Positions 17,320 through 64,000 of a stretch of DNA of 64,000 nt are shown one piece after another. The DNA is from a phage. How positions within the stretch are numbered: the first letter of the stretch is position 1; the number at the start of each line of letters is the position of its first letter. The position numbers and the translations under genes were made by a program. The stretch is from the NCBI GenBank assembly GCA_025611195.1, contig GCA_025611195.1_4718.2. One strand, given 5' to 3'. The notes beneath the pieces were generated by a model that was not told the DNA's origin, ran no database searches, and saw only the letters and a list, made by a program, of their open reading frames with translations.

Positions 17320-17368
17320 GGTGAAGCTGATTACTGCATTGCTTCACCTAGGTAATATAGCCGTGAAA
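17320..17368 (-). promoter_or_regulatory. candidate early-type promoter: TTTCACGGCTATATTAC followed by 8-bp stem-loop
   Basis: Minus strand reads TTTCACGGCTATATTAC (plus 17352..17368), then hairpin GGTGAAGC...GCTTCACC (17320..17348), about 73 nt upstream of ATG 17278. The same 17-mer recurs at 45952..45968 and, as a variant, at 63985..64000. Confidence 0.5.
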
Positions 17369-36735: not shown

Positions 36736-36821
36736 AATAGAACCTCATGATAATAGATAATAGAAATGATAGATAGTACAACAAATTGAGGGGGTATTAT
36801 CCCACCCCCTCGCAGGGATTA

Positions 36822-37355
36822 CTACTTAACGATCGCGATGATTTTGCCGCTCGCACCGGCGTAATATGCTGTTAATTCACCAGTAAACAACTCTTGTAAA
36901 AGACGATTTACGTGACTAACAAAGTTAGGATTGTCTGATTTTACAAACTCGATATTGCGCGTTTGTTTTATATCACGATCGATTAAACGGATTTCCAACA
37001 ACGCACAAATAAGGCGATCGTCGAGTTCACCACTCGCATCCAGCACTTCCCCATACTTCGTAGCACGGACGTCCGCATACATACGGTCAACATCATCCTT
37101 CCCAAAACCACAGGAATAGGCATACGTTGCGATGGTGTTACCATTGTCCATCACATAAACGTTACCACCTGGGTAATCGATAAATCGTTGATCCTTATCA
37201 CCATGAGCGACGAACTCCAGTGTCGGTCTACCCATCGAATCACGGTTGAATTCAATTGTGGTCAAGCGATCTGGTACCACATGCAACGTAAATGGTTTCG
37301 CATTGTTACGATCGCTAGTATCGCAGTTGCCCATTACTTTTACAATAACACTCAT
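36822..37355 (-). CDS. hypothetical protein, tandem paralog B
   Basis: MSVIVKVMGNCDTSDRNNAKPFTL... resembles the 36187..36735 product; AAGGA before ATG. Confidence 0.55.
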   Translation of the reverse strand: MSVIVKVMGNCDTSDRNNAKPFTLHVVPDRLTTIEFNRDSMGRPTLEFVAHGDKDQRFIDYPGGNVYVMDNGNTIATYAYSCGFGKDDVDRMYADVRATKYGEVLDASGELDDRLICALLEIRLIDRDIKQTRNIEFVKSDNPNFVSHVNRLLQELFTGELTAYYAGASGKIIAIVK

Positions 37356-37429
37356 GTTTTATTCCTTAGTAGTCCTAGTAGTAGTATTGAGGAATAGCAC
37401 CTCATTAGATAGTCTATTTTGGTAATGAT

Positions 37430-37729
37430 TTACTGAAACAGGACATTAAACTCGACGAGATACCCATCGGATCTATCACCACGATATCTGTTGCAGAAAA
37501 CACCGAATTTCATCAAGAACTCACATAACTCTTCGGCTTTGTATAACGGAATACGATTTTCGTCGAGCAGAGGACACATATGGCTAACCAGCTCCGACGA
37601 ATCAACGCAACACAAATAAAGAAGGAACCGAACAATAGCTCGGTTCTTAGTGAAGCTCTCGAATTCACCTGCGGTTCTGAACTCATCGAGGAGCTTTGTC
37701 GTTTTCTTCAATCGTTCACGATCAAGCAT
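37430..37729 (-). CDS. hypothetical protein
   Basis: 99-aa ORF with GAGGT before ATG. Confidence 0.5.
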   Translation of the reverse strand: MLDRERLKKTTKLLDEFRTAGEFESFTKNRAIVRFLLYLCCVDSSELVSHMCPLLDENRIPLYKAEELCEFLMKFGVFCNRYRGDRSDGYLVEFNVLFQ

Positions 37730-37742
37730 GTTAACCTCAATA

Positions 37743-37783
37743 CGAACATAACCCTCCTCCGACCCATCAGGGAAGGAGGAGGG
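37743..37783 (-). promoter_or_regulatory. stem-loop CCCTCCTCC/GGAGGAGGG (14-nt loop) followed on the minus strand by TTATGTTCG
   Basis: 9-bp stem 37752..37783 after the stop of 37793..38107; the plus strand carries AATATGCTG on the other side. Confidence 0.5.
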
Positions 37784-37792
37784 AATATGCTG

Positions 37793-38107
37793 TTATTTTG
37801 TTTTAGGTGTTGAACCGTTCTTCTTGAAGTCGGATTCGTATTTCACGTTAGAATCGAGAACCTCACGAACGGTTTTATCCGTACAGCCACGAGCGATGTA
37901 TGCATTAAGATCATCACGTAATTTACGCATTGTTGTTTTATCCGCATCAGAAATATCTGACTTGGTAAGACGGAATGCAATTGCGTCACGGATTTTATTC
38001 AGCGTCGCTGGGTTAATACGCTGTTCTGCAAATACCGCTTTGATGAACTTATCGCTATCTTTCGAAGCGACGGCAGCATCAAGAATCTCAATATGCTTTT
38101 CAGACAT
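37793..38107 (-). CDS. hypothetical protein
   Basis: 104-aa ORF. Confidence 0.5.
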   Translation of the reverse strand: MSEKHIEILDAAVASKDSDKFIKAVFAEQRINPATLNKIRDAIAFRLTKSDISDADKTTMRKLRDDLNAYIARGCTDKTVREVLDSNVKYESDFKKNGSTPKTK

Positions 38108-38163
38108 CTTCTTTCCTTTAATAAACGATCATCGTCATATTCATTGCGCAGGGTACTATCACT

Positions 38164-39387
38164 TCAGTAGCTTAGACATCCCGTGCTACGCGCCAACGCA
38201 ACGTCATATGCATCCATGATCGCATCACCGATAGCGGTATGACGAATCAACGGAATACCCATGTCTGGATACTCTTTGGTACCTAAGATGGATACCGGTT
38301 TGTCTTGATACGCGGCAATCATCGAACGGATATCCTGAACCTGGTTATAACGACAAACTGGCTTAAAGCCTGCTTTACGGAACCAATGTTCTAATTGAGG
38401 CCAATCTGTTTCACCGCGAGCAAGATAATAGAAGGTATCCTTACCGTAGTATTCGGTCATCTCATCACGGATATTGTTAACAAATGCATTTACTGTAGCA
38501 ATGGCTTCTTTATAGTCCATCACTCCGACATGCTGAAAACAATAGTCGCGCGCTTCCTTCGGTGCTTTGGTTTGCCACCATTCTACCGTGGACTTACTAA
38601 TATCACCGCCATCAGCGATTTGACCGTAAACGTCAGGGAAGATATCTATACGTGGACCGTTAATAACAGATTCTGGATTAGCTAGATCAAAGAACAAGAT
38701 GCCGATTTCCAGCAGTACCCCGTTCTTTTCCAGACTGAGATTCTCCACATCCAGGCAAAACGCAGGTTTCTCTACCGCTGAAAAATCAAAATATTCTTCG
38801 AGGCGCGGCGTTGGTTCGGCGGCGAAAAACGTCTCATGAATGAACTGGGCGAATGTCTTATTCTCTGCTACTAAGTCAATACCCAATTTACTTAGCAGAG
38901 GTATAATTGCACGGTCGTTGTACTCCATTACCACCAACTCTTGGCTTTTGATAGAACGACCAATTGAGTAAAAAAGATGAACGATATCTAACGGTTTGTA
39001 CGGAGCCTCAAAAGTTGTTCCCTGGAACGACTCAGCCAGCGCCTTATGCGTTTCTTCACGATGATTCATCAGTTGGAAAATAGCACAGCGCAGATAATGC
39101 CGTAATGTTATCTCGTGAAGGTGTGATGTATCTTCCTGAAATAACGTCATGAAACCGTGATATGTATAATACTCGCCTCTTTGAATTTCTTCGAGGAGTT
39201 CTTTGTCCCCATTTATTTCCTCTGGTGTTATCGGTTCGATTTGATCATGGATAATATTGAGCAGGTCACTGCCGTGTACCTTAAACAGTTTTTCAACGCT
39301 AAAATCGGGTAATGTCGCAATTGCTGCGTACATTAATGTTTCTGCGGGATTAAGTTCTTTATTGTCAATTGTGATGGTTAAAGCCAT
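38164..39387 (-). CDS. protein with C-terminal DEDDh (DnaQ-like) 3'-5' exonuclease domain
   Basis: Exo I-like FCLDVENLSL (DxE) and Exo III-like HTAIGDAIMDAYD (H-x4-D). Start moved to ATG 39387 (GAGGT upstream). Confidence 0.55.
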   Translation of the reverse strand: MALTITIDNKELNPAETLMYAAIATLPDFSVEKLFKVHGSDLLNIIHDQIEPITPEEINGDKELLEEIQRGEYYTYHGFMTLFQEDTSHLHEITLRHYLRCAIFQLMNHREETHKALAESFQGTTFEAPYKPLDIVHLFYSIGRSIKSQELVVMEYNDRAIIPLLSKLGIDLVAENKTFAQFIHETFFAAEPTPRLEEYFDFSAVEKPAFCLDVENLSLEKNGVLLEIGILFFDLANPESVINGPRIDIFPDVYGQIADGGDISKSTVEWWQTKAPKEARDYCFQHVGVMDYKEAIATVNAFVNNIRDEMTEYYGKDTFYYLARGETDWPQLEHWFRKAGFKPVCRYNQVQDIRSMIAAYQDKPVSILGTKEYPDMGIPLIRHTAIGDAIMDAYDVALARSTGCLSY

Positions 39388-39412
39388 TTTATTATACCTC
39401 ATCGAAATCAAA

Positions 39413-39754
39413 TTAGTTAAATTCAGGTTTATCAGCAGCCAGACCAAGTCCAGCCAGTATTACGTAATCATACCAAGCTTTTACTTTTGCTTTCGCTTCA
39501 TCTAAACTATCTGCGTTGATGTGCGGAAACTCATCGTTGACTGGGAAAGGTAAATCGCAGTCGTAGCTTGTATAGTCTTTCCAACCTTTCCATTCGATAG
39601 TTAGAGAACCAAAAACGGTCTCAGCAACAACGTGGTTATAGCGACATTCTTCACATGGCGTACGCTCTTCCGACCAAACAAGCTCGTGCTGTGCTAAAAG
39701 TTGTTGTACGACCGATAATGGTTGCTCTTCATTAAGTTCGATACTGTCTATCAC
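39413..39754 (-). CDS. hypothetical protein
   Basis: 113-aa ORF; ATGA overlap. Confidence 0.5.
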   Translation of the reverse strand: MIDSIELNEEQPLSVVQQLLAQHELVWSEERTPCEECRYNHVVAETVFGSLTIEWKGWKDYTSYDCDLPFPVNDEFPHINADSLDEAKAKVKAWYDYVILAGLGLAADKPEFN

Positions 39755-40347
39755 TGTATACCCTCCTTTTCCTTATCGTAATTACTACACATATTGACAA
39801 ACGCAGTATTATCAGACAGCATGCTAACCATCTGACGGATTGCGTCCAACGGTTCAAGTTTAGGATTGATTGATTCACCGGTCAACGCGCTTATTGCTCG
39901 TGTGATCTCAGCCAAATCAACGTTCGGGTCTTTATCATCAATGATGAGCAGACTCTTCGCCGGTTTCTGACGACGTTTGATGATTAACAAATACGTGACA
40001 AGGTTCTCACGCCAAGCGTCAGAATCCAGATTGCGTATCAGGGTTAACGCACGACGTTCTTCCGCCCATGATGGTTTCTCACGGATAACGGGCATGTAAG
40101 ATAATTGCTCAGCAAGCCCTTTCAAACTGACACGGTTGGTGCCACCAGGATGCTCACTAATCCGCAACATCTCGGTTAACAGACGGACATATGCGGTTGT
40201 TGTAGAAACACCCCGCAGCGGCAGGAACAAATTATGTCCCGGAACCCCATCATGACTCAGCGGTGCGATATACGCCATGAATTGACGGATATCGTCATCG
40301 GTCTGTTCTCCAGCAACGAACTTAAACGCTTCACGTAGAACGCTCAC
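39751..40347 (-). CDS. hypothetical protein
   Basis: 198-aa ORF. Confidence 0.5.
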   Translation of the reverse strand: MSVLREAFKFVAGEQTDDDIRQFMAYIAPLSHDGVPGHNLFLPLRGVSTTTAYVRLLTEMLRISEHPGGTNRVSLKGLAEQLSYMPVIREKPSWAEERRALTLIRNLDSDAWRENLVTYLLIIKRRQKPAKSLLIIDDKDPNVDLAEITRAISALTGESINPKLEPLDAIRQMVSMLSDNTAFVNMCSNYDKEKEGIQ

Positions 40348-40633
40348 TACGAAGTCTCCTTAATGTTTCTTTTATATGCAATCTCTTCGGCAAGTACAGA
40401 CGTTTGTACAGATCAACTAACAGATAACGCATAACGGAAGCAACCACCAGGTATTCGCCTTCAGCTTCCGAATAGCGTATCATGTTAATCGGGTAATTCA
40501 AATAAGAATAAGAAAAGAGATCATCATTGGTGAGGCGATGATCTTCAAGATACTGACGAAACAATTCTGCTAAGGCATCGTACTCCATTCCGTAGTAACA
40601 CAACGATACCTGTCTTACCGACAGTCGTTTCAT
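40331..40633 (-). CDS. hypothetical protein
   Basis: 100-aa ORF. Confidence 0.45.
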   Translation of the reverse strand: MKRLSVRQVSLCYYGMEYDALAELFRQYLEDHRLTNDDLFSYSYLNYPINMIRYSEAEGEYLVVASVMRYLLVDLYKRLYLPKRLHIKETLRRLRSERST

Positions 40634-41472
40634 GCTGAGTTACCTTTTAGTTTTCCGCGTATCATGTCAACAACGCGTGAGGGATCAGAAATAACATTAG
40701 CGATAAGATGATCGATAGGTAGGTCGAGAACGATTTTCTTCAGCTGGAAAGTCGTATCTTTACGACGCACGCCGTAGAACACACCATCTTTAAACACAAC
40801 CTCGTACGAAATTGGTAGCTGACTGATAATCGTGTTAGCGTAATCACCCAACCACATCGACCCCGCCATCAAATGCGCACAAACCGCATGACTAATACGC
40901 ACATCTTTGTTCTTCTGGCTAACGTCTTTGATTTTCGACATGGTGACCAGAAGTTCACCGATCTTACTGAGCATATCGTCGTATACCCCAAAGAACTTAA
41001 TCAGTTGTCGGGCACCTAACGATATATATGTTTCTCGCGGTAAGACACAACACACCTGCGGTAACGTCCCAACCCCATAGACACAACTGTGGGGTGACAA
41101 TGGGAGCAAATCAGCAACCGCGTTCTTGATGTTGTTATACTCAACGATATCGTTGAACGGCGAAAGCCCTTTCGTAATCGGTTTATCAATCGCCACATCA
41201 AACTCCGCGAACGTCCATGCTGCTTTACGGGGTTCCCCTTTCTTGTACGGTGGGGCCAGTATCGCAACAACACGAAGTCGATACTCATGTGTATCGCGTA
41301 GCTTAAGTTGGATACCATCATCATCGCCTTCACGCACAAGTGAGTAGCGGCTCGCGCAACCATCACAGACCACCGTTGGTTCGTGTTGACCGTATGCTGC
41401 AAGCATCGGTTTACTAAGATCTTTATCACAGTGTTTACAATGATGATCCTGTTCCTGATAACTGATTTTCAC
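40630..41472 (-). CDS. hypothetical protein with N-terminal zinc ribbon
   Basis: HHCKHCDK...VVCDGCASRY (CxxC...CxxC). Confidence 0.5.
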   Translation of the reverse strand: MKISYQEQDHHCKHCDKDLSKPMLAAYGQHEPTVVCDGCASRYSLVREGDDDGIQLKLRDTHEYRLRVVAILAPPYKKGEPRKAAWTFAEFDVAIDKPITKGLSPFNDIVEYNNIKNAVADLLPLSPHSCVYGVGTLPQVCCVLPRETYISLGARQLIKFFGVYDDMLSKIGELLVTMSKIKDVSQKNKDVRISHAVCAHLMAGSMWLGDYANTIISQLPISYEVVFKDGVFYGVRRKDTTFQLKKIVLDLPIDHLIANVISDPSRVVDMIRGKLKGNSA

Positions 41473-41487
41473 ATCAGGGCTCCTTTG

Positions 41488-42444
41488 TTAATGTAATACG
41501 CGATCTACTGGAATTGTCGACGCGTTGCTGGCGGACAGATTCGTTGCTTTACGATCAGGACTGAATCGACGAGCGTTCTCTTCATGGTAGTTAACCGGGT
41601 TATCCTGTTTCAGCAATTCTATTGCTTCATCAAACGCTAATTCCCTATAACCCTTTGGATATAGGAACAGGGGTTCGTCAATATCCAACCCTTTAACAAA
41701 CTCATGCGACAACCAAACGCTACCATCAGCACTGTAAAGAACAGGCTCAACATCATAATCCAAAACGTATTGATACCAGTAATTAAACAGTTGGGCGATC
41801 CATCGATTACGTAATAAATAATCGATTACAACCGCACTACGCACGCTATGGCACCAGCCGATCTTACCGTCAACTCTCTGCAACAACGTACCGTCATTTG
41901 CTTGGTGGATGACAGCATTAAATAACCAGGCAAGATCGGTTGCGAAAAGTGCCGCTTCTTGAATATCGCTAATGTAGCGCACAGGTATCGTCAGATGAGT
42001 GCGGTAATGCGCCATCGCTTCTTCGTAGTTGTCTCCTTCGATACAGAGAATACCATTTGACGACAGATGCCCCTGATTCAATGACTGACTGATATAAAGA
42101 TCAGCGATCGCGTTAATATGTTCGACGGTACCCAAGGTTAATTCAGACATAAAACGATCAACGTCAACGGACATCGATGTACCGGAAATGAACGGATTGG
42201 CTGGGCGAGCCGTATTAGAGAAAATAATCGACCAGATCGCTTCGTGTTTTTCATCCGATGGGACAAACGAAATATGGCGTTCTGCACTATTAGCATCAAC
42301 AGATACTTCTACTGTTTTCAAGCAGCTAGTACAAACATAACACGTGTTCGGCAACGGCATATCCGAAAACATATCGTAACGAATTGTCGCAATTGAAATA
42401 TCATGTCCGCAGTGAGGGCATGTGGTATCAATAAGTGTTCTCAT
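41488..42444 (-). CDS. hypothetical protein with N-terminal zinc ribbon
   Basis: TTCPHCGHD...CYVCTSCLK. Confidence 0.5.
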   Translation of the reverse strand: MRTLIDTTCPHCGHDISIATIRYDMFSDMPLPNTCYVCTSCLKTVEVSVDANSAERHISFVPSDEKHEAIWSIIFSNTARPANPFISGTSMSVDVDRFMSELTLGTVEHINAIADLYISQSLNQGHLSSNGILCIEGDNYEEAMAHYRTHLTIPVRYISDIQEAALFATDLAWLFNAVIHQANDGTLLQRVDGKIGWCHSVRSAVVIDYLLRNRWIAQLFNYWYQYVLDYDVEPVLYSADGSVWLSHEFVKGLDIDEPLFLYPKGYRELAFDEAIELLKQDNPVNYHEENARRFSPDRKATNLSASNASTIPVDRVLH

Positions 42445-42674
42445 TGTTGAATTCCTTTTGATAAGAATAACTGTATATCGGTAAACTGTTCTTTAGGAAC
42501 ATCGTCGGCAGCCGTTAGAACCTCAGGACCGTGTTCGTTGAGGTAAGCTTCTCGTTGAAGATGATAAAGTCGATTGGCTTCTTGGAACTCAGTGTCCGTC
42601 ATGTAAACCAACTTAAACTTCGAACGTTTATTCGGATTATATCTCTTATTACGTTTCTTTGGTTTCTTCGCCAT
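42441..42674 (-). CDS. small basic protein
   Basis: Start moved to ATG 42674 (GAGG upstream); MAKKPKKRNKRYNPNKRSK. Confidence 0.45.
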   Translation of the reverse strand: MAKKPKKRNKRYNPNKRSKFKLVYMTDTEFQEANRLYHLQREAYLNEHGPEVLTAADDVPKEQFTDIQLFLSKGIQQ

Positions 42675-42686
42675 AATAGCCTCGTG

Positions 42687-42713
42687 AAGGTGGATGGTAC
42701 ACCCATCCACCTT
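42687..42713 (-). promoter_or_regulatory. stem-loop AAGGTGGATGG-TACAC-CCATCCACCTT
   Basis: Perfect 11-bp stem between the stop of 42722..43243 and the start of 42441..42674. Confidence 0.5.
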
Positions 42714-42721
42714 CCTCCATG

Positions 42722-43243
42722 TTAAAGTGCGTTCATTTCTTCAGGTGTGCGTACAGTGCGCGTGTTGGGATCGACCATTGCTGGTACGCCCGCAGGACAT
42801 TTACGGACATCAATCCGCATCTCAGGCTCGATCGGACGAACGCGATACGTTTTACCGTCGTCGGTTAACACCGAAATGGTCAACGCTTGGTTCAATTCAT
42901 TAACGAAGTTCACCAAACGCTGCTGCCCGCCTGCCGACCAGAAGTTGAGATCGGTTTCTCCGCTGAAATAACTGATTCCTTCGGCGGTCCCAATCGTGAT
43001 TTTAACGATGCCCGGATAGTCACGAAGAAGGGGTGCCTGATAACCTTCATCTTCCGTATCCAATTTTACCCACGCGCCTCCCGTAGACAAGCAGTTAACT
43101 TCCAAGGCGGTTGGCGCACTGACTTCTGCCGATGACCAGGTATACATCGTGCCTAGTTTAGCGTGTCCGGTTTCCAGCTCGCTGTAATCCCAAGCGTGTG
43201 CTGATGCCGTAATAAAGAGGGCTGCAAGAAACAACTTTTTCAT
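42722..43243 (-). CDS. secreted protein
   Basis: Signal peptide MKKLFLAALFITASAHA. Confidence 0.6.
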   Translation of the reverse strand: MKKLFLAALFITASAHAWDYSELETGHAKLGTMYTWSSAEVSAPTALEVNCLSTGGAWVKLDTEDEGYQAPLLRDYPGIVKITIGTAEGISYFSGETDLNFWSAGGQQRLVNFVNELNQALTISVLTDDGKTYRVRPIEPEMRIDVRKCPAGVPAMVDPNTRTVRTPEEMNAL

Positions 43244-43298
43244 TCTTTTCGATTCCTATTAAAAGTGACCGATTTCTGTGGTCAGGATTGCTAATACA

Positions 43299-43733
43299 TT
43301 AAATCTGGTTTTGTTTCCGTATTGCACGGTTACGTTTACGTTCTTGGTCTTTGACAGTACCAAGAAACTTCCTTAATTCTGACGGTTCGAGCGTACCCTC
43401 ACGTACCACGCCGTTTTGTTCGATATGGTACGACCAATAACCAACTTCAGCTGTTAAAGATAACGTTGTTGGTTGCGCATCAGGCAACGATCGGGGTGAG
43501 AAAATAAAGAGTAATTCAAAAGGCGTTTCTCGGCTGATGGTGGGACGGATACTAACGTCAAGCCCCTCCCATCGCTGCGGCTTAAATATTCCTCCGGCGG
43601 CGACGATTGTCTCCGAGCGTTGGTCTACAAGCTCAGCTAATTCACGATCGTCATTGAAATAAATATCGTGAAGGATATCTGTGTCGATAAAAAACCCGCG
43701 CTCCAAATCGTGACGAACAATTGAATTCTTCAT
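43299..43733 (-). CDS. hypothetical protein
   Basis: Start moved to ATG 43733; the ORF-track ATG at 43760 is the alternative. Confidence 0.45.
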   Translation of the reverse strand: MKNSIVRHDLERGFFIDTDILHDIYFNDDRELAELVDQRSETIVAAGGIFKPQRWEGLDVSIRPTISRETPFELLFIFSPRSLPDAQPTTLSLTAEVGYWSYHIEQNGVVREGTLEPSELRKFLGTVKDQERKRNRAIRKQNQI

Positions 43734-43807
43734 TCTAACGCCTTTGTTGTTTGTTTTCATGTCCTATACGAACACGAAAAACCGTTAATTTTTACCTTGA
43801 TTGCGTG

Positions 43808-44095
43808 TTAAAATTCCACACCGCGACCGGTCATCGACGAAGGAACCGTGCGATAATAGAAGTAGATGTAATGGTCACGATGGCTAAAATAGTTTTTGCA
43901 AGCATAGAACTCTCCAGATCCAATGAATGATTTAATACGTGTAACTTGAGGGTGTCGTTCGATTAGCGCTCGTAGGACGATTTCCATTTGGTGTGCGCTC
44001 AAGCCTGGTCGAGCTGCGACATGATAATGAAGCTCCTTAAGAAATCGTTTCCAGGGTTCGGGTTGTGTCGACGATCGAGACATCGTTATCTCCAT
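43808..44095 (-). CDS. hypothetical protein
   Basis: 95-aa ORF downstream of a stem-loop/TTATGC element. Confidence 0.45.
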   Translation of the reverse strand: MEITMSRSSTQPEPWKRFLKELHYHVAARPGLSAHQMEIVLRALIERHPQVTRIKSFIGSGEFYACKNYFSHRDHYIYFYYRTVPSSMTGRGVEF

Positions 44096-44149: not shown

Positions 44150-44707
44150 TTACTCCATCCATACTTCTTCGTCGTAATGATTTTCTATCGCATTACGCCA
44201 AAAACGTACGGTGTCCAAACTAATCGGTGCGTAAAAATGTTGGTCAACGCCTACATTAAGTCCGTTGGCCTTCGCTAACATACAGCGATGAATATGCCCG
44301 AATAGATTGAAGTAGCCCGGGTTTCTTTCGCTGGGTTTATGGCATAGCCAGTAGGATTCGTCATTGCTAATCGGCAATACCAACGGATGTTCATAAACAG
44401 CAGCAAACCCCATACCGAGCAGTTTATCACGCCACGCGTCGAAGCTTAATCCTGTCGCTTTGTATGCGTCTTCGTCCCAATTCCCCATTACCAATTGAAC
44501 CTGGATATCAGAACGAATGGCTTCCACGAACTCGAACTTACCCCAATCACCTAAATGCCACAACACACTGTTCTTTGGAAGATTGTTGATGGCTTTCAGC
44601 ATATGTTGGTTCATATCGGCGACGCTTGCGAACGGACGGCGTGAATACGTCCATGTACGCTCGCTATCGAAATGGGTATCCGATGTAAAGAAGATGGGTG
44701 GGGTCAT
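44150..44707 (-). CDS. calcineurin-like metallophosphoesterase
   Basis: Motifs SDTHF (D-x-H), LGDWG (GD), GNWDED (GNHD/E-like) and GHIHR (GH-x-H) in canonical order. Confidence 0.75.
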   Translation of the reverse strand: MTPPIFFTSDTHFDSERTWTYSRRPFASVADMNQHMLKAINNLPKNSVLWHLGDWGKFEFVEAIRSDIQVQLVMGNWDEDAYKATGLSFDAWRDKLLGMGFAAVYEHPLVLPISNDESYWLCHKPSERNPGYFNLFGHIHRCMLAKANGLNVGVDQHFYAPISLDTVRFWRNAIENHYDEEVWME

Positions 44708-45186
44708 TGATCTAATTGCTCCAGAAATGCGCGACCCGATTTACTTGCTTTTAAATGCTGTTCTGCGGAAGTAAGCAGAAGATCGGTTGGTGTGAATGCA
44801 GCGCTACCTTTCCACGCCGTTTTCAGTTTACCCTTTTCGATACTGAACTGAATCAGTTGTTGGGTACCGAAGTTAAGCGTGTTCGTCGCGGCGCTAAATA
44901 CACCACCCATCATGCTGTAACCAAAGACTTTCACATTTTCCGTGTAGAAGTCATTGTCGATCAATTTGTTCTGGAGCTCGAGTTGATCGGACGGCAGCAA
45001 TCCCCCATCAAAGACACTTAAAATACCAGCCAGGCGATACATACTCACCTTCCCTGCAACGCCCACCACGTAATTGCCATACACGGTTTCTTCCAGTTTA
45101 GCAACAACGGTGCGATCGTCGGAGGTTTTCATCGAAACCTCAATACCATCACCAACTTCTGTCAACGTTAAATCAACGATACTCAT
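44704..45186 (-). CDS. hypothetical protein
   Basis: 160-aa ORF; ATGA overlap with the phosphoesterase gene. Confidence 0.5.
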   Translation of the reverse strand: MSIVDLTLTEVGDGIEVSMKTSDDRTVVAKLEETVYGNYVVGVAGKVSMYRLAGILSVFDGGLLPSDQLELQNKLIDNDFYTENVKVFGYSMMGGVFSAATNTLNFGTQQLIQFSIEKGKLKTAWKGSAAFTPTDLLLTSAEQHLKASKSGRAFLEQLDQ

Positions 45187-45208
45187 TCATCATTCTCCGC
45201 TTTCATGT

Positions 45209-45895
45209 TTAACACATGATTTCACCATGTTTCTTTTCAACATACGTATAAACATCATCCAAATAAGCAATGAGTTTATCCCGATTTGCACAAAGCGATT
45301 TAATCACCGCAATCTCTTTCATATAAAGCTGCTGACCTAACGCCGGATAAGTAATCCAAGCATAGCCGTCAGGCGCAAATTTAGAAATAAGATAATCGGC
45401 GGTTTCCTGTAGTGCGAACTCTTTACTCATCTGACCGTAACGATGTTCGATTGCACGGATACCAAAACGTTCGCTATCCAGACGACCCATATCCGCCAAA
45501 CGAAGCACCTGAGAAGCAACCGAGCTACGTGGACCGGAGTATGAGGCGCGGTGTTCAGCAATAAGTACACGTATCTCCTCGATGTCTTCTGGTGTGAAAA
45601 TATGTTGCTCGTTACGAAGCAGGATAACCGATGCACGAATACCTCCGATAAGGTGGTGGTACGTTCTGTTTTCGTGGCATGCAATATCATGCATAAAAGC
45701 GGCAGTTAATAGACGACGACGTTCCGTGGGTCTGATGATGCCAACCACATCGGCAAGTTCATTTGCCAATTCGACAACAGCAAGCACGTGTTCTTCTTGA
45801 TGAGCAAGATCATTTTTACGAATATTATCAATTACTTCAGTGCGTGTTTCCTGAGATAAGAAATTTAGACAATCCAACGAATATAAAGATTTCAT
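45209..45895 (-). CDS. HD-domain phosphohydrolase
   Basis: H...HD...D pattern (HVLAV ... AAFMHDIA ... D). AAAGAGG before ATG. Preceded by the TATATTAC element. Confidence 0.6.
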   Translation of the reverse strand: MKSLYSLDCLNFLSQETRTEVIDNIRKNDLAHQEEHVLAVVELANELADVVGIIRPTERRRLLTAAFMHDIACHENRTYHHLIGGIRASVILLRNEQHIFTPEDIEEIRVLIAEHRASYSGPRSSVASQVLRLADMGRLDSERFGIRAIEHRYGQMSKEFALQETADYLISKFAPDGYAWITYPALGQQLYMKEIAVIKSLCANRDKLIAYLDDVYTYVEKKHGEIMC

Positions 45896-45944: not shown

Positions 45945-45968
45945 CACGTAAGTAATATAGCCGTGAAA
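45945..45968 (-). promoter_or_regulatory. candidate early-type promoter: TTTCACGGCTATATTAC (second copy)
   Basis: Exact 17-mer shared with 17352..17368, minus orientation, about 56 nt upstream of ATG 45895, followed by the imperfect palindrome TTACGTGAGTAA. Lies in the divergent intergenic region 45896..46111. Confidence 0.5.
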
Positions 45969-46048
45969 GGATTTGTGTTGGTCCGTTTCGATGCCCATCG
46001 TATTTTATGGATTGTCGAATGACGTCATTTTTAAGGGACATCCCCGAC

Positions 46049-46088
46049 CTCCTCCCCACACCTTTCCTGGGGAGGAGTTTTATCATAC
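46049..46088 (+). promoter_or_regulatory. stem-loop CTCCTCCCC/GGGGAGGAG followed by TTTTATCATAC, upstream of plus-strand helicase gene
   Basis: 9-bp stem at 46049..46077, then TTTTATCATAC at 46078..46088, 24 nt before ATG 46112. The same TTTTATCATAC occurs at 54712..54722. Confidence 0.45.
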
Positions 46089-46111
46089 TTTCTATTAATT
46101 CGAGCGCGATT

Positions 46112-48193
46112 ATGTTGGATAGAATCAATCGTTTAATGAACCGAATGACGGTTAAAAATCAGAGTAACAATACCGTGCATATCGGGGGTATCGATGCGTG
46201 GCGTCTTTCAGATGACATTCAGCGTATATGGGGTACCTCCCGATTTATGAAACACATGTTTCGTAATTTCTCTTCTAGTGGACTCAGTCTCCACAACTTT
46301 TACCTTCCCGATTTCGTTTATATTCTCGAAACGATCATCGAAGCAAAGAATACCCGTAGTAACAAACGCATGCTGAAACACCTTATCGAGATACTACTGC
46401 AGGAAACATGGTTGCAAAATACCACCATCGAGCAGCCTGCAATCCTCGATAAAGCACGCATGAACAAAATGCTAACGCTCTCTTTGTTCGATTATCAAGA
46501 TGAGTTCATCGACATCTATAACCGTAATGTACCTAAGTATCGACTGAAAGGATACGTGTGTGCGATGGGTGCTGGTGCTGGTAAAACGATCACAGCATTG
46601 GCATTAAGCGCCGCAATGAACGTCGATGTATTTGTGGTCTGCTGCCCTAAGAACACCATGCGTTCAGCATGGCAATCCGATGTAAACAAAGCCATCGTTG
46701 ATCCTGCAACAGAAACCGCGTTCTGGTCGGATACAATGCCACCATCACAGCTGCAGAAAAGCGATAAATACTATTTTTTACATTACGAATCGATGGGCTT
46801 ATTAAACGATGTGATGATCAAGCATAAACGCACAGCGAAGCGCGTTCTTATTGTTGTTGACGAAAGCCATAACTTCAACGACAAGAACAGCCAACGTTCC
46901 CAGCGACTGGTTGATCTTGTACAGACAATGCGTCAAACCATGAATGCGGATGTGCACGTCTTGTTTATGTCGGGTACGCCTGTTAAACAGATGGGTTCTG
47001 AGATGATCCCATGTTTAGGTTGTATCGATCCGATGTTCCAAGGACAGGTGGTCGATAGCTTCAAAGCAATTTACGGTTTAACCAGCAGCCGTGCTAACGA
47101 TATCCTCAGACATCGTCTTGGGTTCATGATGCATGTCGTACCTAAAGAGGCTTACCGTAAAACCCGTCCGGAAGTTCAGGACGTTTACGTGAAGCTCCCT
47201 AACGGTAGCGATTATACCATCTCGAGCATTCGTGACGACATGGCGATATTTGTACGCGATCGGGCGAAGTATTACAAGGATAACTGGGGACATTACCGAA
47301 AGATTTTTGATGATGCCTTGGACTACTATCGTAAGACTATTCGTACCGACGGAGAACGTAAAGAGCTATCTCGATACGAATCGATTGTTGCGCGTTTCCA
47401 GAAAGGTTACGATCCCGTCAGAGACAAAGAAGATGCGATGTTCTGCAACGCGTTTGAAAAACGTTCCATCATGCCAGTTCTTCCTTCTGATTTAAGGGTT
47501 GCTTTCAAAGACGCCAAGAGCGTCATCAAGTACGTTGGGTTGAAAATTCAGGGTGAAGCGTTGGCGCGTGTTCTGGGCGCAGCGCGCATTCGGTGTCATG
47601 TCGACATGGTGGAATACATCGACTTCGAAGAGTACATCAATAACGCCGAAGCCAAAGTGTTGATCTTCACATCGTACGTTCAGGTGGTTGAACGCGTCGA
47701 TAACATGCTTCGTGATGCGGGCTTCTTACCGGAACCCATTTACGGGAAGACCAACAAAAACATCAACCAAATACTTGCCCGTCTACGCGACGATCCTGAC
47801 AGCGGTCCCGCTATCGCAACATTTGATAGCTTAGCTGAAGGGGTTCCGATGCTGATGTGTAATGTGGGTCTTTTCCTGAACAACCCGTGGCGCTCATCCG
47901 ATGAAATCCAAGCCATCAGCCGTCTCGATCGTGTAGGGCAAACGCAACCTGTTCGGATTTATCGTTTCATGTTAGATACAGGAAGCGAAGGTAACGTTTC
48001 TACACGTAGCCACGAAATCATGGAGTTAAGTCGGCAGCTTGTTGAAGAAATCACGGGCGTCAAATACGTGGTGAACAAGCAAGATGATGTTAACTTGCAG
48101 GAAACGTTAGCGATGGAAGGATACGATCAATACGTTACCGTAAACACCTCGGAATACGATATTAAACCACGACCTGCGTTCTTGGAATGGTAA
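46112..48193 (+). CDS. SNF2-family helicase/ATPase
   Basis: Motif I MGAGAGKT, motif II VVDESHNF, motif III FMSGTPV, motif VI QAISRLDRVGQ. Start moved to ATG 46112. Confidence 0.8.
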   Translation: MLDRINRLMNRMTVKNQSNNTVHIGGIDAWRLSDDIQRIWGTSRFMKHMFRNFSSSGLSLHNFYLPDFVYILETIIEAKNTRSNKRMLKHLIEILLQETWLQNTTIEQPAILDKARMNKMLTLSLFDYQDEFIDIYNRNVPKYRLKGYVCAMGAGAGKTITALALSAAMNVDVFVVCCPKNTMRSAWQSDVNKAIVDPATETAFWSDTMPPSQLQKSDKYYFLHYESMGLLNDVMIKHKRTAKRVLIVVDESHNFNDKNSQRSQRLVDLVQTMRQTMNADVHVLFMSGTPVKQMGSEMIPCLGCIDPMFQGQVVDSFKAIYGLTSSRANDILRHRLGFMMHVVPKEAYRKTRPEVQDVYVKLPNGSDYTISSIRDDMAIFVRDRAKYYKDNWGHYRKIFDDALDYYRKTIRTDGERKELSRYESIVARFQKGYDPVRDKEDAMFCNAFEKRSIMPVLPSDLRVAFKDAKSVIKYVGLKIQGEALARVLGAARIRCHVDMVEYIDFEEYINNAEAKVLIFTSYVQVVERVDNMLRDAGFLPEPIYGKTNKNINQILARLRDDPDSGPAIATFDSLAEGVPMLMCNVGLFLNNPWRSSDEIQAISRLDRVGQTQPVRIYRFMLDTGSEGNVSTRSHEIMELSRQLVEEITGVKYVVNKQDDVNLQETLAMEGYDQYVTVNTSEYDIKPRPAFLEW

Positions 48194-48292: not shown

Positions 48293-49744
48293 ATGAAACT
48301 CAAACAAAGCTGGAAAGACGAACTTCTTGCGTTAGTAAATAGCAAAAACAGTTTACAGCTGACATTAGACGACGTAAAATTTGAACTAACTGAACCGGTA
48401 AGCGAAGTGCCCGGAACGGTTACTGTCACGATCAAACCGAACGATGATAGCCGTTACTTTAACGAGCAGTCTCTGACCTACGTTCGTCGAGACATCGCTA
48501 AAAACTTCACCGGGATCCCGTTACGGGTTATCGTTAAAAATGATACCGCCGTAAAGGATATCATCAACACGATCGCTGAACGTTACGGATTGGTATTTGA
48601 CACAACCGTCGACTTCCTCGAATCCGAGCTGAATAAACAAATTACGTTCGCAGACACCGGTATTAAAGACATCACGGTTCCGGTTGCAAACACGTCTTAT
48701 GTTTGGGCTGGTAATCTTCAGTTCAACATTGCTAACGATACGTTAAGCTTGATTACGATCATCAAGAAAACCGATCTTACGAATCTGGTTTATCTGGATG
48801 GTGTTGAAGCTGATACAACGGGATCGTTACTATTAGCAACGACCTCGGTTATCGACGAAAACGGAAATACCGAAACAACTGAAGGTGTCCTTGACGCCGC
48901 GCACTTCCAGAATGTCCTGAACGTCATGGTTCGTTATGGTGATATTACCAACGAACAAATGCAACAAGCAATGCAGACAATTAACCAAAGCGAAGACGTT
49001 CGTAGAGTAGAGGTGAGATCATACGGTGACGCCGAATTACTGGTAACCACCAAGAAAGATTGGGCTATCGGTAGCCTTAAGGGTGCTATGGCTGTTGGAC
49101 GCGCTTCACCTAAACCGATCCAATACGTTCTTAAAACAAAAGGCGGCAGCATTATATTATCATTAAATGGTTGGACAAATGTTTCCATCGATTGGGGTGA
49201 TGGGAATAAGACGACGGAGGACTCAGTCGATAATGAATATCGGCACAATTATACGGACACTACAGAACGTACGATCGTCGCTACGGGTACCCCTACCAAC
49301 GTTGAAGATACAGAGGTACAGCAAAGCTTCACCGGTGGTAACATTACAGAAATCGTTGACTGGAACAACGGATTACCTAAGGCCCCATCATTACTTGCGG
49401 CGAACAGTTTAACTAAGGTTCCTAATTATATCCCGGCATACTGGACATCGTTAGAAGGTATGTTTACGAGATGTAGCGTTATTAACGACGTGAACATCAC
49501 CAAATGGAACACCCGCAACATTACTTCAATGAAGGACCTCTTCTACGGTTGCGCTGCGTTCAACCAACCGATCGGTTCGTGGGATGTTTCGTCTGTTAAG
49601 AATATCGACAATATGTTGTCTGGATGCTTCGCGTTCAATCAGGATCTGAGTGGTTGGACATTCCCGGCAGGCACTTCACACATTAACTACGACGCCATGA
49701 CCGCCGTGTGGAGTACTGAACACAAACCACACTTCACCGAGTAA
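48293..49744 (+). CDS. fibre-family paralog on the plus strand: shared N-terminal module plus DUF285/BspA-type repeats
   Basis: MKLKQSWKDELLALVNSKN...YVRRDIAKNFTGIPLRVIV aligns with the 6194..7948 product. C-terminus has the same TSMKDLFYGCAAFNQPIGSWDVSSV units. Start moved to ATG 48293 (AGGA upstream). Confidence 0.7.
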   Translation: MKLKQSWKDELLALVNSKNSLQLTLDDVKFELTEPVSEVPGTVTVTIKPNDDSRYFNEQSLTYVRRDIAKNFTGIPLRVIVKNDTAVKDIINTIAERYGLVFDTTVDFLESELNKQITFADTGIKDITVPVANTSYVWAGNLQFNIANDTLSLITIIKKTDLTNLVYLDGVEADTTGSLLLATTSVIDENGNTETTEGVLDAAHFQNVLNVMVRYGDITNEQMQQAMQTINQSEDVRRVEVRSYGDAELLVTTKKDWAIGSLKGAMAVGRASPKPIQYVLKTKGGSIILSLNGWTNVSIDWGDGNKTTEDSVDNEYRHNYTDTTERTIVATGTPTNVEDTEVQQSFTGGNITEIVDWNNGLPKAPSLLAANSLTKVPNYIPAYWTSLEGMFTRCSVINDVNITKWNTRNITSMKDLFYGCAAFNQPIGSWDVSSVKNIDNMLSGCFAFNQDLSGWTFPAGTSHINYDAMTAVWSTEHKPHFTE

Positions 49745-63962: not shown

Positions 63963-64000
63963 CTCTATGACTTTGTTCATAGAGGTAATATAAGCGTGAA
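63963..64000 (-). promoter_or_regulatory. candidate early-type promoter variant: TTCACGCTTATATTAC next to 8-bp stem-loop (truncated by window end)
   Basis: Minus strand reads ...TTCACGCTTATATTAC (plus 63985..64000) then hairpin CTCTATGA...TCATAGAG (63963..63984), about 96 nt upstream of ATG 63889. Same layout as 17320..17368. Confidence 0.4.

Follow-up and report, generated by a model that had tools for sequence, protein, structure and literature searches.

An HD-domain hydrolase gene and a metallophosphoesterase gene behind an early-type promoter-like element in a Goslar-like jumbo phage

The locus and its phage

The phage contig GCA_025611195.1_4718.2 (NCBI GenBank assembly GCA_025611195.1) has been analysed as one stretch of 64,000 nucleotides, which we will call the window. 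Between positions 44150 and 45895 its minus strand carries three closely spaced genes that are the subject of this study. The first, at 45209–45895 (-), encodes a putative HD-domain metal-dependent phosphohydrolase of 228 aa. It is followed by a lineage-specific ORFan of 160 aa at 44704–45186 (-) and by a calcineurin-like metallophosphoesterase (MPE) of 185 aa at 44150–44707 (-), a member of PHROG 547. The stop codon of the HD gene and the start of the ORFan are separated by 22 nt, and the stop codon of the ORFan overlaps the MPE start by 4 nt (ATGA). An element resembling the early promoters read by virion RNA polymerases is located 56 nt upstream of the HD ATG. The coordinates of both enzyme genes are exactly those given in a preliminary description of this DNA. 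That description also placed the enzymes "two genes apart", which is correct if it means that one gene lies between them, the ORFan being the single intervening gene.

The 4-kb stretch around these genes is 94% identical at the nucleotide level to Escherichia phage vB_EcoM_Goslar (MK327938, 139849–143841), a nucleus-forming jumbo phage of E. coli belonging to the Chimalliviridae, and no other match was obtained in the phage collection searched. The HD protein, the ORFan and the MPE are homologs of Goslar gp159 (98.7% amino acid identity), gp158 and gp157 (98.4% amino acid identity), respectively. Gene order, strand and the upstream promoter block are shared by the two phages, which differ in overall nucleotide sequence and by an indel in the 5' untranslated region (5'UTR) of the HD gene. 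In the GenBank record, gp159 is labelled as a putative HD superfamily hydrolase, gp157 as a putative phosphoesterase or phosphohydrolase, and gp158 as hypothetical. A literature search on Goslar gp157, gp159 and their accessions returned no paper that names them and no experimental work.

The early-type promoter-like element

The promoter-like element occupies positions 45945–45990 (-) and has the core TTTCACGGCTATATTACTTACGTGA. Within it, TTTCACGGCTATATTAC is found at 45952–45968 (-), and the 8-mer TATATTAC corresponds to 45952–45959 (-). The window holds an exact second copy of TTTCACGGCTATATTAC at 17352–17368 (-) and a looser third copy at 63985–64000 (-). The bare 8-mer is not enriched in the window, where three copies are found against 2.4 expected. 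Also, a scan of the window for over-represented k-mers did not reveal the promoter by itself, and a motif search allowing three mismatches gave counts at the chance level. Given the lack of enrichment of the 8-mer core, the whole Goslar genome (237 kb), assembled from seven pieces, was examined for the motif.

In the Goslar genome, TATATTAC occurs ten times, with every copy on the minus strand, and eight of these ten copies share an extended motif of ~45 nt. A position weight matrix built from the eight extended sites identifies 12 sites in Goslar, none of them on the plus strand (2567, 15067, 43266, 49732, 86705, 113797, 142800, 160791, 166069, 172978, 201944, and 226695), compared with 0–2 sites in each of 20 shuffled genomes (mean 0.2). 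The recurrence of the extended motif is well beyond chance. Eleven of the sites each precede a block of minus-strand genes, at 39–166 nt from its first gene; the weakest, at 49732, falls inside the small annotated gene gp47. Two sub-classes of the motif can be distinguished, one with TTTCACGGCTATATTAC and the other with GAAAAAAAT..CAGG.(T/C)TATATTAC, and four weaker Goslar sites carry TACATTAC, the form used by the RisingSun-like phages.

The early promoters of phiKZ provide the closest comparison. We take TATATTAC to be the core of the phiKZ early-promoter consensus, and the phiKZ sequence itself was inspected directly rather than relying on this assumption. One Goslar copy of the motif precedes the chimallin gene gp189, whose product is a homolog of gp054, the nuclear shell protein of phiKZ (E 8e-18). 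The sequences upstream of the two chimallin genes, GAAAAAAATTTGAGATTTATATTACTAAATTGAAT for phiKZ gp054 and GAAAAAAATTTCAGGGTTATATTACCTAGGTGAAT for Goslar gp189, are nearly superimposable. In both phages an A/T-rich tract stands before the TATATTAC core, and the architecture at the orthologous chimallin genes is near-identical. PHIKZ054 has an early-promoter motif and a mapped primary transcription start in phiKZ (PMC8244752). The phiKZ genome has 28–32 AT-rich early promoters from which the injected virion RNA polymerase transcribes (PMC8244752, PMC10914365, PMC7598289), whereas Goslar has just 12 clear copies. The Goslar version also differs from that of phiKZ in having an additional conserved TTTCACGGC block upstream and a GTGA block downstream. 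AT-rich -10 motifs ahead of early operons have been described for all these phages (PMC7598289), and what is found in Goslar is of this kind, namely an AT-rich, -10-like element that recurs upstream of gene blocks on the coding strand.

The promoter block is identical in the window and in Goslar, while the adjacent 5'UTR differs by four substitutions and an 8-nt indel. The same class of motif is present upstream of the HD homolog in about nine of 11 other chimalliviruses, at distances of 45–185 nt. These phages are RisingSun, Proteus phage 10, pEa_SNUABM_54, ACP1, SA002, PDCC-1, Yubaba, and two metagenomic chimalliviruses (L018 and L020). At these loci the motif usually stands just after a terminator-like hairpin, and the pattern occurs once or twice per locus. 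The unchanged block next to a varying 5'UTR and the presence of the same motif class upstream of HD homologs argue that the element is functional. No Rfam family was detected anywhere in the window, and no structure was found in the 5'UTR of the HD gene.

The preliminary description had placed both enzyme genes behind an early-type promoter motif. This placement is supported by the recurrence of the motif in Goslar, including at the chimallin gene, and by the match to the region upstream of phiKZ gp054. With good support from these comparisons, we infer that the element would direct early expression.

A probable transcription unit

The HD gene is the first of a long leftward gene array that corresponds to Goslar gp159 to about gp93. 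A terminator scan found no terminator-like hairpin between the promoter element and the MPE gene, and no strong one before position 37646. The first strong hairpins are located at 37625–37646 and 36788–36811 and match the terminators annotated in Goslar. Based on the intergenic gaps of 22 and -4 nt and the lack of a terminator-like site before 37646, the HD, gp158 and MPE genes are predicted to be co-transcribed. The overlap of the gp158 stop codon with the MPE start further suggests that these two genes are translationally coupled.

The probable transcription unit is ~8 kb long and contains ~16 genes. Its remainder, at 36788–44095 (-), consists of ~13 small genes, nearly all of unknown function, and ends at the two hairpins. 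Besides the two enzymes, only one gene of the unit, at 38164–39447 (-), encodes a recognisable domain. Its product is a protein of 427 aa with an Rv2179c-like 3'-5' exoribonuclease domain (Pfam PF16473, E 5.7e-14), and is the third phosphoester hydrolase of the probable early operon.

The HD-domain protein

The assignment of the gp159 homolog to the HD fold, made earlier by inspection of the sequence, is borne out by several comparisons. The protein matches the Pfam HD family (PF01966) with 33.5 bits against a curated cut-off of 22 (E 5.7e-8) and phrog_3921 with an E-value of 1.6e-30. The AlphaFold2 (AF2) model is all-helical and has a predicted local distance difference test (pLDDT) score of 94.9. 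The HD motif itself is formed by His69 and Asp70. An alignment seeded with phage homologs and then used to collect 35 relatives shows D29, A31, H32, H36, H69, D70, R77, H80, H81, H115, R116, S118, D135, and K172 to be invariant. The HD-site residues, including H36, H69-D70 and D135, are invariant across 34 relatives. The resulting pattern, H...HD...H...H...D, is typical of metal-dependent HD hydrolases, and the protein is predicted to be one of them.

A homolog search with the HD sequence alone recovered only its own cluster, and a single-sequence phmmer search against the PDB sequences gave nothing significant. The profile built from the alignment matches 2pq7 (E 8.9e-7) and YedJ (E 2.5e-5) over residues 24–142, so that the similarity to the YpgQ/YedJ clade extends across the catalytic core. 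Because the single-sequence search has no significant match, this relationship is a distant one. Sequence identity to this clade, which includes PenF and AtCN-PDE1, is 15–21%, and the Foldseek E-values are above 1e-3. The phage family differs from YpgQ/YedJ in its own invariant residues N28, C73, K172, Y178, and W180 and in a longer C-terminal helical part, which aligns better with class I phosphodiesterases. The fold of the HD protein also appears close to that of the class I cyclic-nucleotide phosphodiesterases.

YpgQ and YedJ are Mn-dependent pyrophosphohydrolases of ribo- and deoxyribonucleoside triphosphates ((d)NTPs), and the Arabidopsis ortholog AtCN-PDE1 is a cGMP phosphodiesterase (PMC6692503). 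Nucleoside 5'-monophosphatase activity is reported for PenF (PMC11592144). The substrates of the clade are free nucleotides, and the bond that is cleaved is variable. The full H...HD...H...H...D metal site of the phage protein and its closest characterised relatives, YpgQ and YedJ, make hydrolysis of a free nucleotide its most likely activity.

Homologs of the HD protein are present in many chimalliviruses, including RisingSun, RAY, Noxifer, Miami, SA002, and Aeromonas and Vibrio phages. Among the records listed there is none from phiKZ proper, and the protein was not found in published core-genome tables under the terms searched. In many of these nucleus-forming phages the gene usually has what appears to be its own early-type promoter. 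In Vibrio phage pTD1 (L012, 3393–5657) the HD gene is located between the genes for dihydrofolate reductase and thymidylate synthase, and in Photobacterium phage PDCC-1 (L028, 2902–4605) it is directly upstream of the thymidylate synthase gene. The HD gene therefore abuts thymidylate synthase in two genera of the Gorgonvirinae, and this context hints that it may act in the metabolism of thymidylate or dNTPs.

Nucleotide hydrolysis early in infection could also, as the preliminary description proposed, serve to erase the signals of host defence. One or both early enzymes would then hydrolyse immune second messengers in the cytoplasm, against which the phage nucleus gives no protection. The candidate signals are cyclic mono-, di- and oligonucleotides, as used by CBASS, Pycsar and type III CRISPR systems, and the ADP-ribose-derived signals of Thoeris. 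Such a function is compatible with the phosphodiesterase-like fold of the HD protein and with the activity of some relatives on cyclic nucleotides. However, the HD protein lacks the HD-GYP signature that marks HD-GYP cyclic-di-nucleotide phosphodiesterases, and its relatives by sequence are (d)NTP or nucleoside monophosphate hydrolases. The position of the HD gene beside dihydrofolate reductase and thymidylate synthase in the Gorgonvirinae points instead to DNA-precursor metabolism. The known anti-defence nucleases Acb1, Apyc1 and AcrIII-1 have a 2H fold, an MBL fold and a DUF1874 domain, respectively; no sequence match to the known anti-defence nuclease families was obtained, nor any PADLOC match. 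Nothing specific supports signal erasure, and we consider it unlikely. A bolder form of the proposal makes the phrog_3921 HD family a dedicated early cytoplasmic phosphodiesterase that destroys the cyclic (oligo)nucleotide signals of type III CRISPR, CBASS and Pycsar systems, with the PHROG 547 MPE and gp158 forming a second arm in the Goslar lineage. It would draw on the presence of the family in many chimalliviruses with an early-type promoter of its own, and on a fold that comes nearest to the class I cyclic-nucleotide phosphodiesterases. We regard this form as more doubtful still.

The metallophosphoesterase

The second enzyme had been recognised as a calcineurin-like phosphoesterase from its motifs. 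All the motifs named at that time are present, and the fold is confirmed by profile and structural matches. The protein scores 31.7 bits against the Pfam family Metallophos_2 (PF12850; curated cut-off 27, E 1.8e-7) and matches the phrog_547 "phosphoesterase" profile from residue 3 to residue 181 (E 6.4e-31). The nearest solved structure is that of the uncharacterised Aquifex protein aq_1665 (1xm7, E 1e-9), and a single-sequence phmmer search of the PDB sequences gave nothing significant. The motifs are D10-x-H12, G53-D54, G75-N76-W77-D78, H123, and G137-H138-x-H140, which make up the set of the calcineurin-like superfamily (Pfam PF12850/PF00149; DxH, GD, GN(H)(D/E), H, and GHxH) with a tryptophan in place of the motif III histidine.

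In an alignment with 120 relatives, the seven metal ligands D10, H12, D54, N76, H123, H138, and H140 are invariant. In 119 of the 121 sequences motif III is GNYE, and GNWD is confined to the Goslar-like pair. The family is large, with at least 7,894 relatives scored, and is spread over unrelated phages such as the Yoloswag-like Erwinia phages, Enterococcus Schiekvirus, and Streptomyces and Bacillus phages.

PHROG 547 has characterised members in the mycobacteriophages. The D29 protein gp66 matches phrog_547 with an E-value of 4.1e-52, and its alignment with the MPE profile by hhalign has a probability of 97.6% (E 3.1e-12, 167 columns). D29 gp66 is the only mycobacteriophage protein that was compared directly; the relatedness of A10ZJ24 gp48 and Bxb1 gp47 is taken from PMC12287305. 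The proteins share PHROG 547 and the five MPE motifs, and D29 gp66 is of similar length (199 aa against 185 aa for the MPE). The identity between D29 gp66 and the MPE is ~26%, and D29 gp66 has the canonical GNHD where the MPE has GNWD and its closest relatives have GNYE. Host, phage lifestyle and genome context also differ between the mycobacteriophage proteins and the Goslar-type MPE.

The functions reported for the mycobacteriophage proteins are not the same. D29 gp66 acts on 2',3'-cyclic nucleotides, Bxb1 gp47 is a recombination directionality factor for which catalysis is not needed, and A10ZJ24 gp48, which shows strong early induction, breaks down host DNA and is required to overcome the defences of M. 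tuberculosis (PMC12287305). For the MPE of the window, homology predicts a Mn-dependent diesterase and does not predict its target.

The example of Bxb1 gp47 raises the question of whether the Goslar-type MPE acts as an enzyme. It could be a structural or regulatory protein in which catalysis is unimportant, and the HD protein could likewise be a regulator. The tryptophan in place of the motif III histidine would agree with this, as would the behaviour of Bxb1 gp47, a protein of the same mycobacteriophage MPE group that functions in the absence of phosphoesterase activity (PMC12287305). On the other hand, the seven metal ligands of the MPE and all the HD-site residues (34 relatives) are invariant, which argues for selection on catalysis. 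Also, Goslar is lytic, and the Goslar annotations retrieved contain no integrase. A non-catalytic role is therefore very improbable.

Relatives of the MPE are found in several other gene contexts, and some of them are fused to a nucleoside 2-deoxyribosyltransferase-like domain. One such fusion, in a bacterial contig (L022, 5001–6541), is located beside NUDIX and CinA genes. A metagenomic phage contig (L024, 3005–5534) has overlapping genes for a NUDIX protein, a Ser/Thr protein kinase and an MPE relative. Enterococcus phage EFDG1 (L017, 3998–6172) carries two tandem PHROG 547 phosphoesterases followed by one small gene and an annotated Ser/Thr protein phosphatase, giving a run of three metallophosphoesterase-type genes.

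Linkage of the two enzyme genes

The preliminary description had suggested that the two phosphohydrolases act as a pair. Linkage was examined with the locus annotation tables and by tblastn of all three proteins against the loci L008–L026, and with tables for PDCC-1 and Yubaba. No MPE homolog is present at any of the 11 HD loci of other phages (±3–6 kb), and no HD homolog is present at any of six MPE loci. The two families have different taxon distributions, the adjacency is confined to the Goslar lineage, and an ORFan stands between the genes. A conserved MPE–HD module has accordingly been rejected, and with it the suggestion of a pair. The juxtaposition at the start of an early operon looks like normal mosaicism of gene order.

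One apparent counterpart was also considered. In SA002, a gene annotated as a putative phosphohydrolase follows two genes after the HD gene. Its product has no Pfam MPE match and no similarity to the MPE, and was rejected as a homolog.

The lack of conserved linkage also bears on a wider proposal, in which the genes would form a module for the salvage of host nucleic acids. The MPE and the Rv2179c-like exonuclease would degrade host DNA and RNA, and the HD enzyme would process the nucleotides set free. Three phosphoester hydrolases within one probable early transcription unit would fit such a module, as would the early degradation of host DNA by the MPE relative A10ZJ24 gp48 (PMC12287305) and the shielding of the phage's own DNA in the nucleus (PMC13282480). 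Goslar encodes ThyA and Tmk, and tblastn detected neither a trimeric dUTPase nor a dCMP deaminase in it, a weak negative that comes from BLAST only. However, these genes show no conserved co-occurrence in other phages, and a nucleotidase or pyrophosphohydrolase would waste precursors unless it were highly specific. We hold a cooperative salvage module to be improbable.

A possible role in early infection

The explanation that we favour, and to which we assign a moderate probability, is that the HD protein and the MPE are accessory phosphohydrolases without relation to each other, whose genes are transcribed together at the start of an ~8-kb early operon of a Goslar-like chimallivirus, and that their neighbourhood is a lineage-specific accident. 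The element upstream of the HD gene would be a phiKZ-type early promoter driving the HD–gp158–MPE unit. Most likely, the injected virion RNA polymerase would start just downstream of TATATTAC soon after injection, and the mRNA would be translated in the host cytoplasm. There the HD enzyme would hydrolyse a free nucleotide, with a (d)NTP or a (deoxy)nucleoside monophosphate as the leading candidate, and this activity may shape the nucleotide pool for phage DNA synthesis. The MPE would be a Mn2+-dependent phosphodiesterase acting on nucleic-acid or nucleotide diesters, and homology suggests 2',3'-cyclic ends or nucleotides, or host DNA, as its substrates. A cytoplasmic DNase or phosphodiesterase would be affordable to a phage whose DNA is enclosed in the phage nucleus. 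In this explanation the folds, the family memberships, the recurrence of the motif and the absence of conserved linkage are established by the comparisons above, and the early timing, the co-transcription, the location in the cytoplasm and the substrates are deduced.

Several points weigh against this explanation. The early timing of the HD/MPE unit is deduced from motif homology as its sole ground. The roles reported for PHROG 547 are diverse and include a recombination directionality factor, a 2',3'-cyclic nucleoside monophosphate phosphodiesterase and a DNase; as a result, homology may predict the chemistry of the MPE rather than its biology. The presence of GNWD or GNYE where D29 gp66 has GNHD suggests that the MPE subfamily may differ in catalysis. 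Finally, the tight spacing and the predicted translational coupling of gp158 and the MPE could mean that they are functionally connected in the Goslar lineage.

The DNA of nucleus-forming jumbo phages is shielded, yet in the first minutes of infection these phages face the cytoplasm with its nucleotide pools, host nucleic acids and signalling defences. Conserved early enzymes with no assigned substrate are natural candidates for the handling of the host cytoplasm. The HD hydrolase appears to be a recurrent and separately promoted early-type gene across chimalliviruses, and in the phage family of the MPE one protein has already been linked with the evasion of immunity. The two proteins add new members to phage families that were known before, and their folds were already annotated in Goslar. 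What is new here is the evidence for an early-type promoter, including its conservation at chimallivirus HD genes, the link between the MPE and D29 gp66, and the dismissal of the idea of a pair. The observation holds up, but it is a rather ordinary one and does not add a new kind of system. Both enzymes would be cheap to express and assay.

Neighbouring genes

In Goslar, a divergent SNF2/DEAD helicase gene, gp160, is located upstream of gp159. The open reading frame of the divergent helicase obtained mechanically in the window starts at 46007 (+) and encodes 728 aa, and the start annotated in Goslar is ~35 codons further in. The additional N-terminal part, at 46007–46112 (+), overlaps the divergent promoter region and a hairpin at 46061–46075, and because of this overlap it is probably untranslated.

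The gp158 homolog has no match in Pfam, PHROG, NCBIfam or PADLOC, and tblastn against phages finds it in Goslar only. Among 1.84 billion representative proteins it has three relatives, two of which are distant (37–39% identity). The invariant motif SVFDGG-x2-PSD is common to gp158 and the distant relatives. An AF2 model built from four sequences has a pLDDT of 39 and is unusable.

In six other chimalliviruses, and not in Goslar, the HD gene is directly followed by a gene for a protein of 150–165 aa with an N-terminal hydrophobic segment (L008, 5678–6163; L013, 4654–5118; L014, 4658–5152; L018, 6761–7246; L020, 6708–7166; and L029, 3630–4088). The possibility that gp158 is the Goslar counterpart of these ~155-aa proteins was rejected, as no similarity was found by alignment, BLASTP or tblastn, and gp158 does not have the N-terminal hydrophobic segment that they carry. 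By BLASTP, the small proteins form one weak family. The conserved pair may consist of the HD gene and this small protein, which is probably anchored in the membrane.

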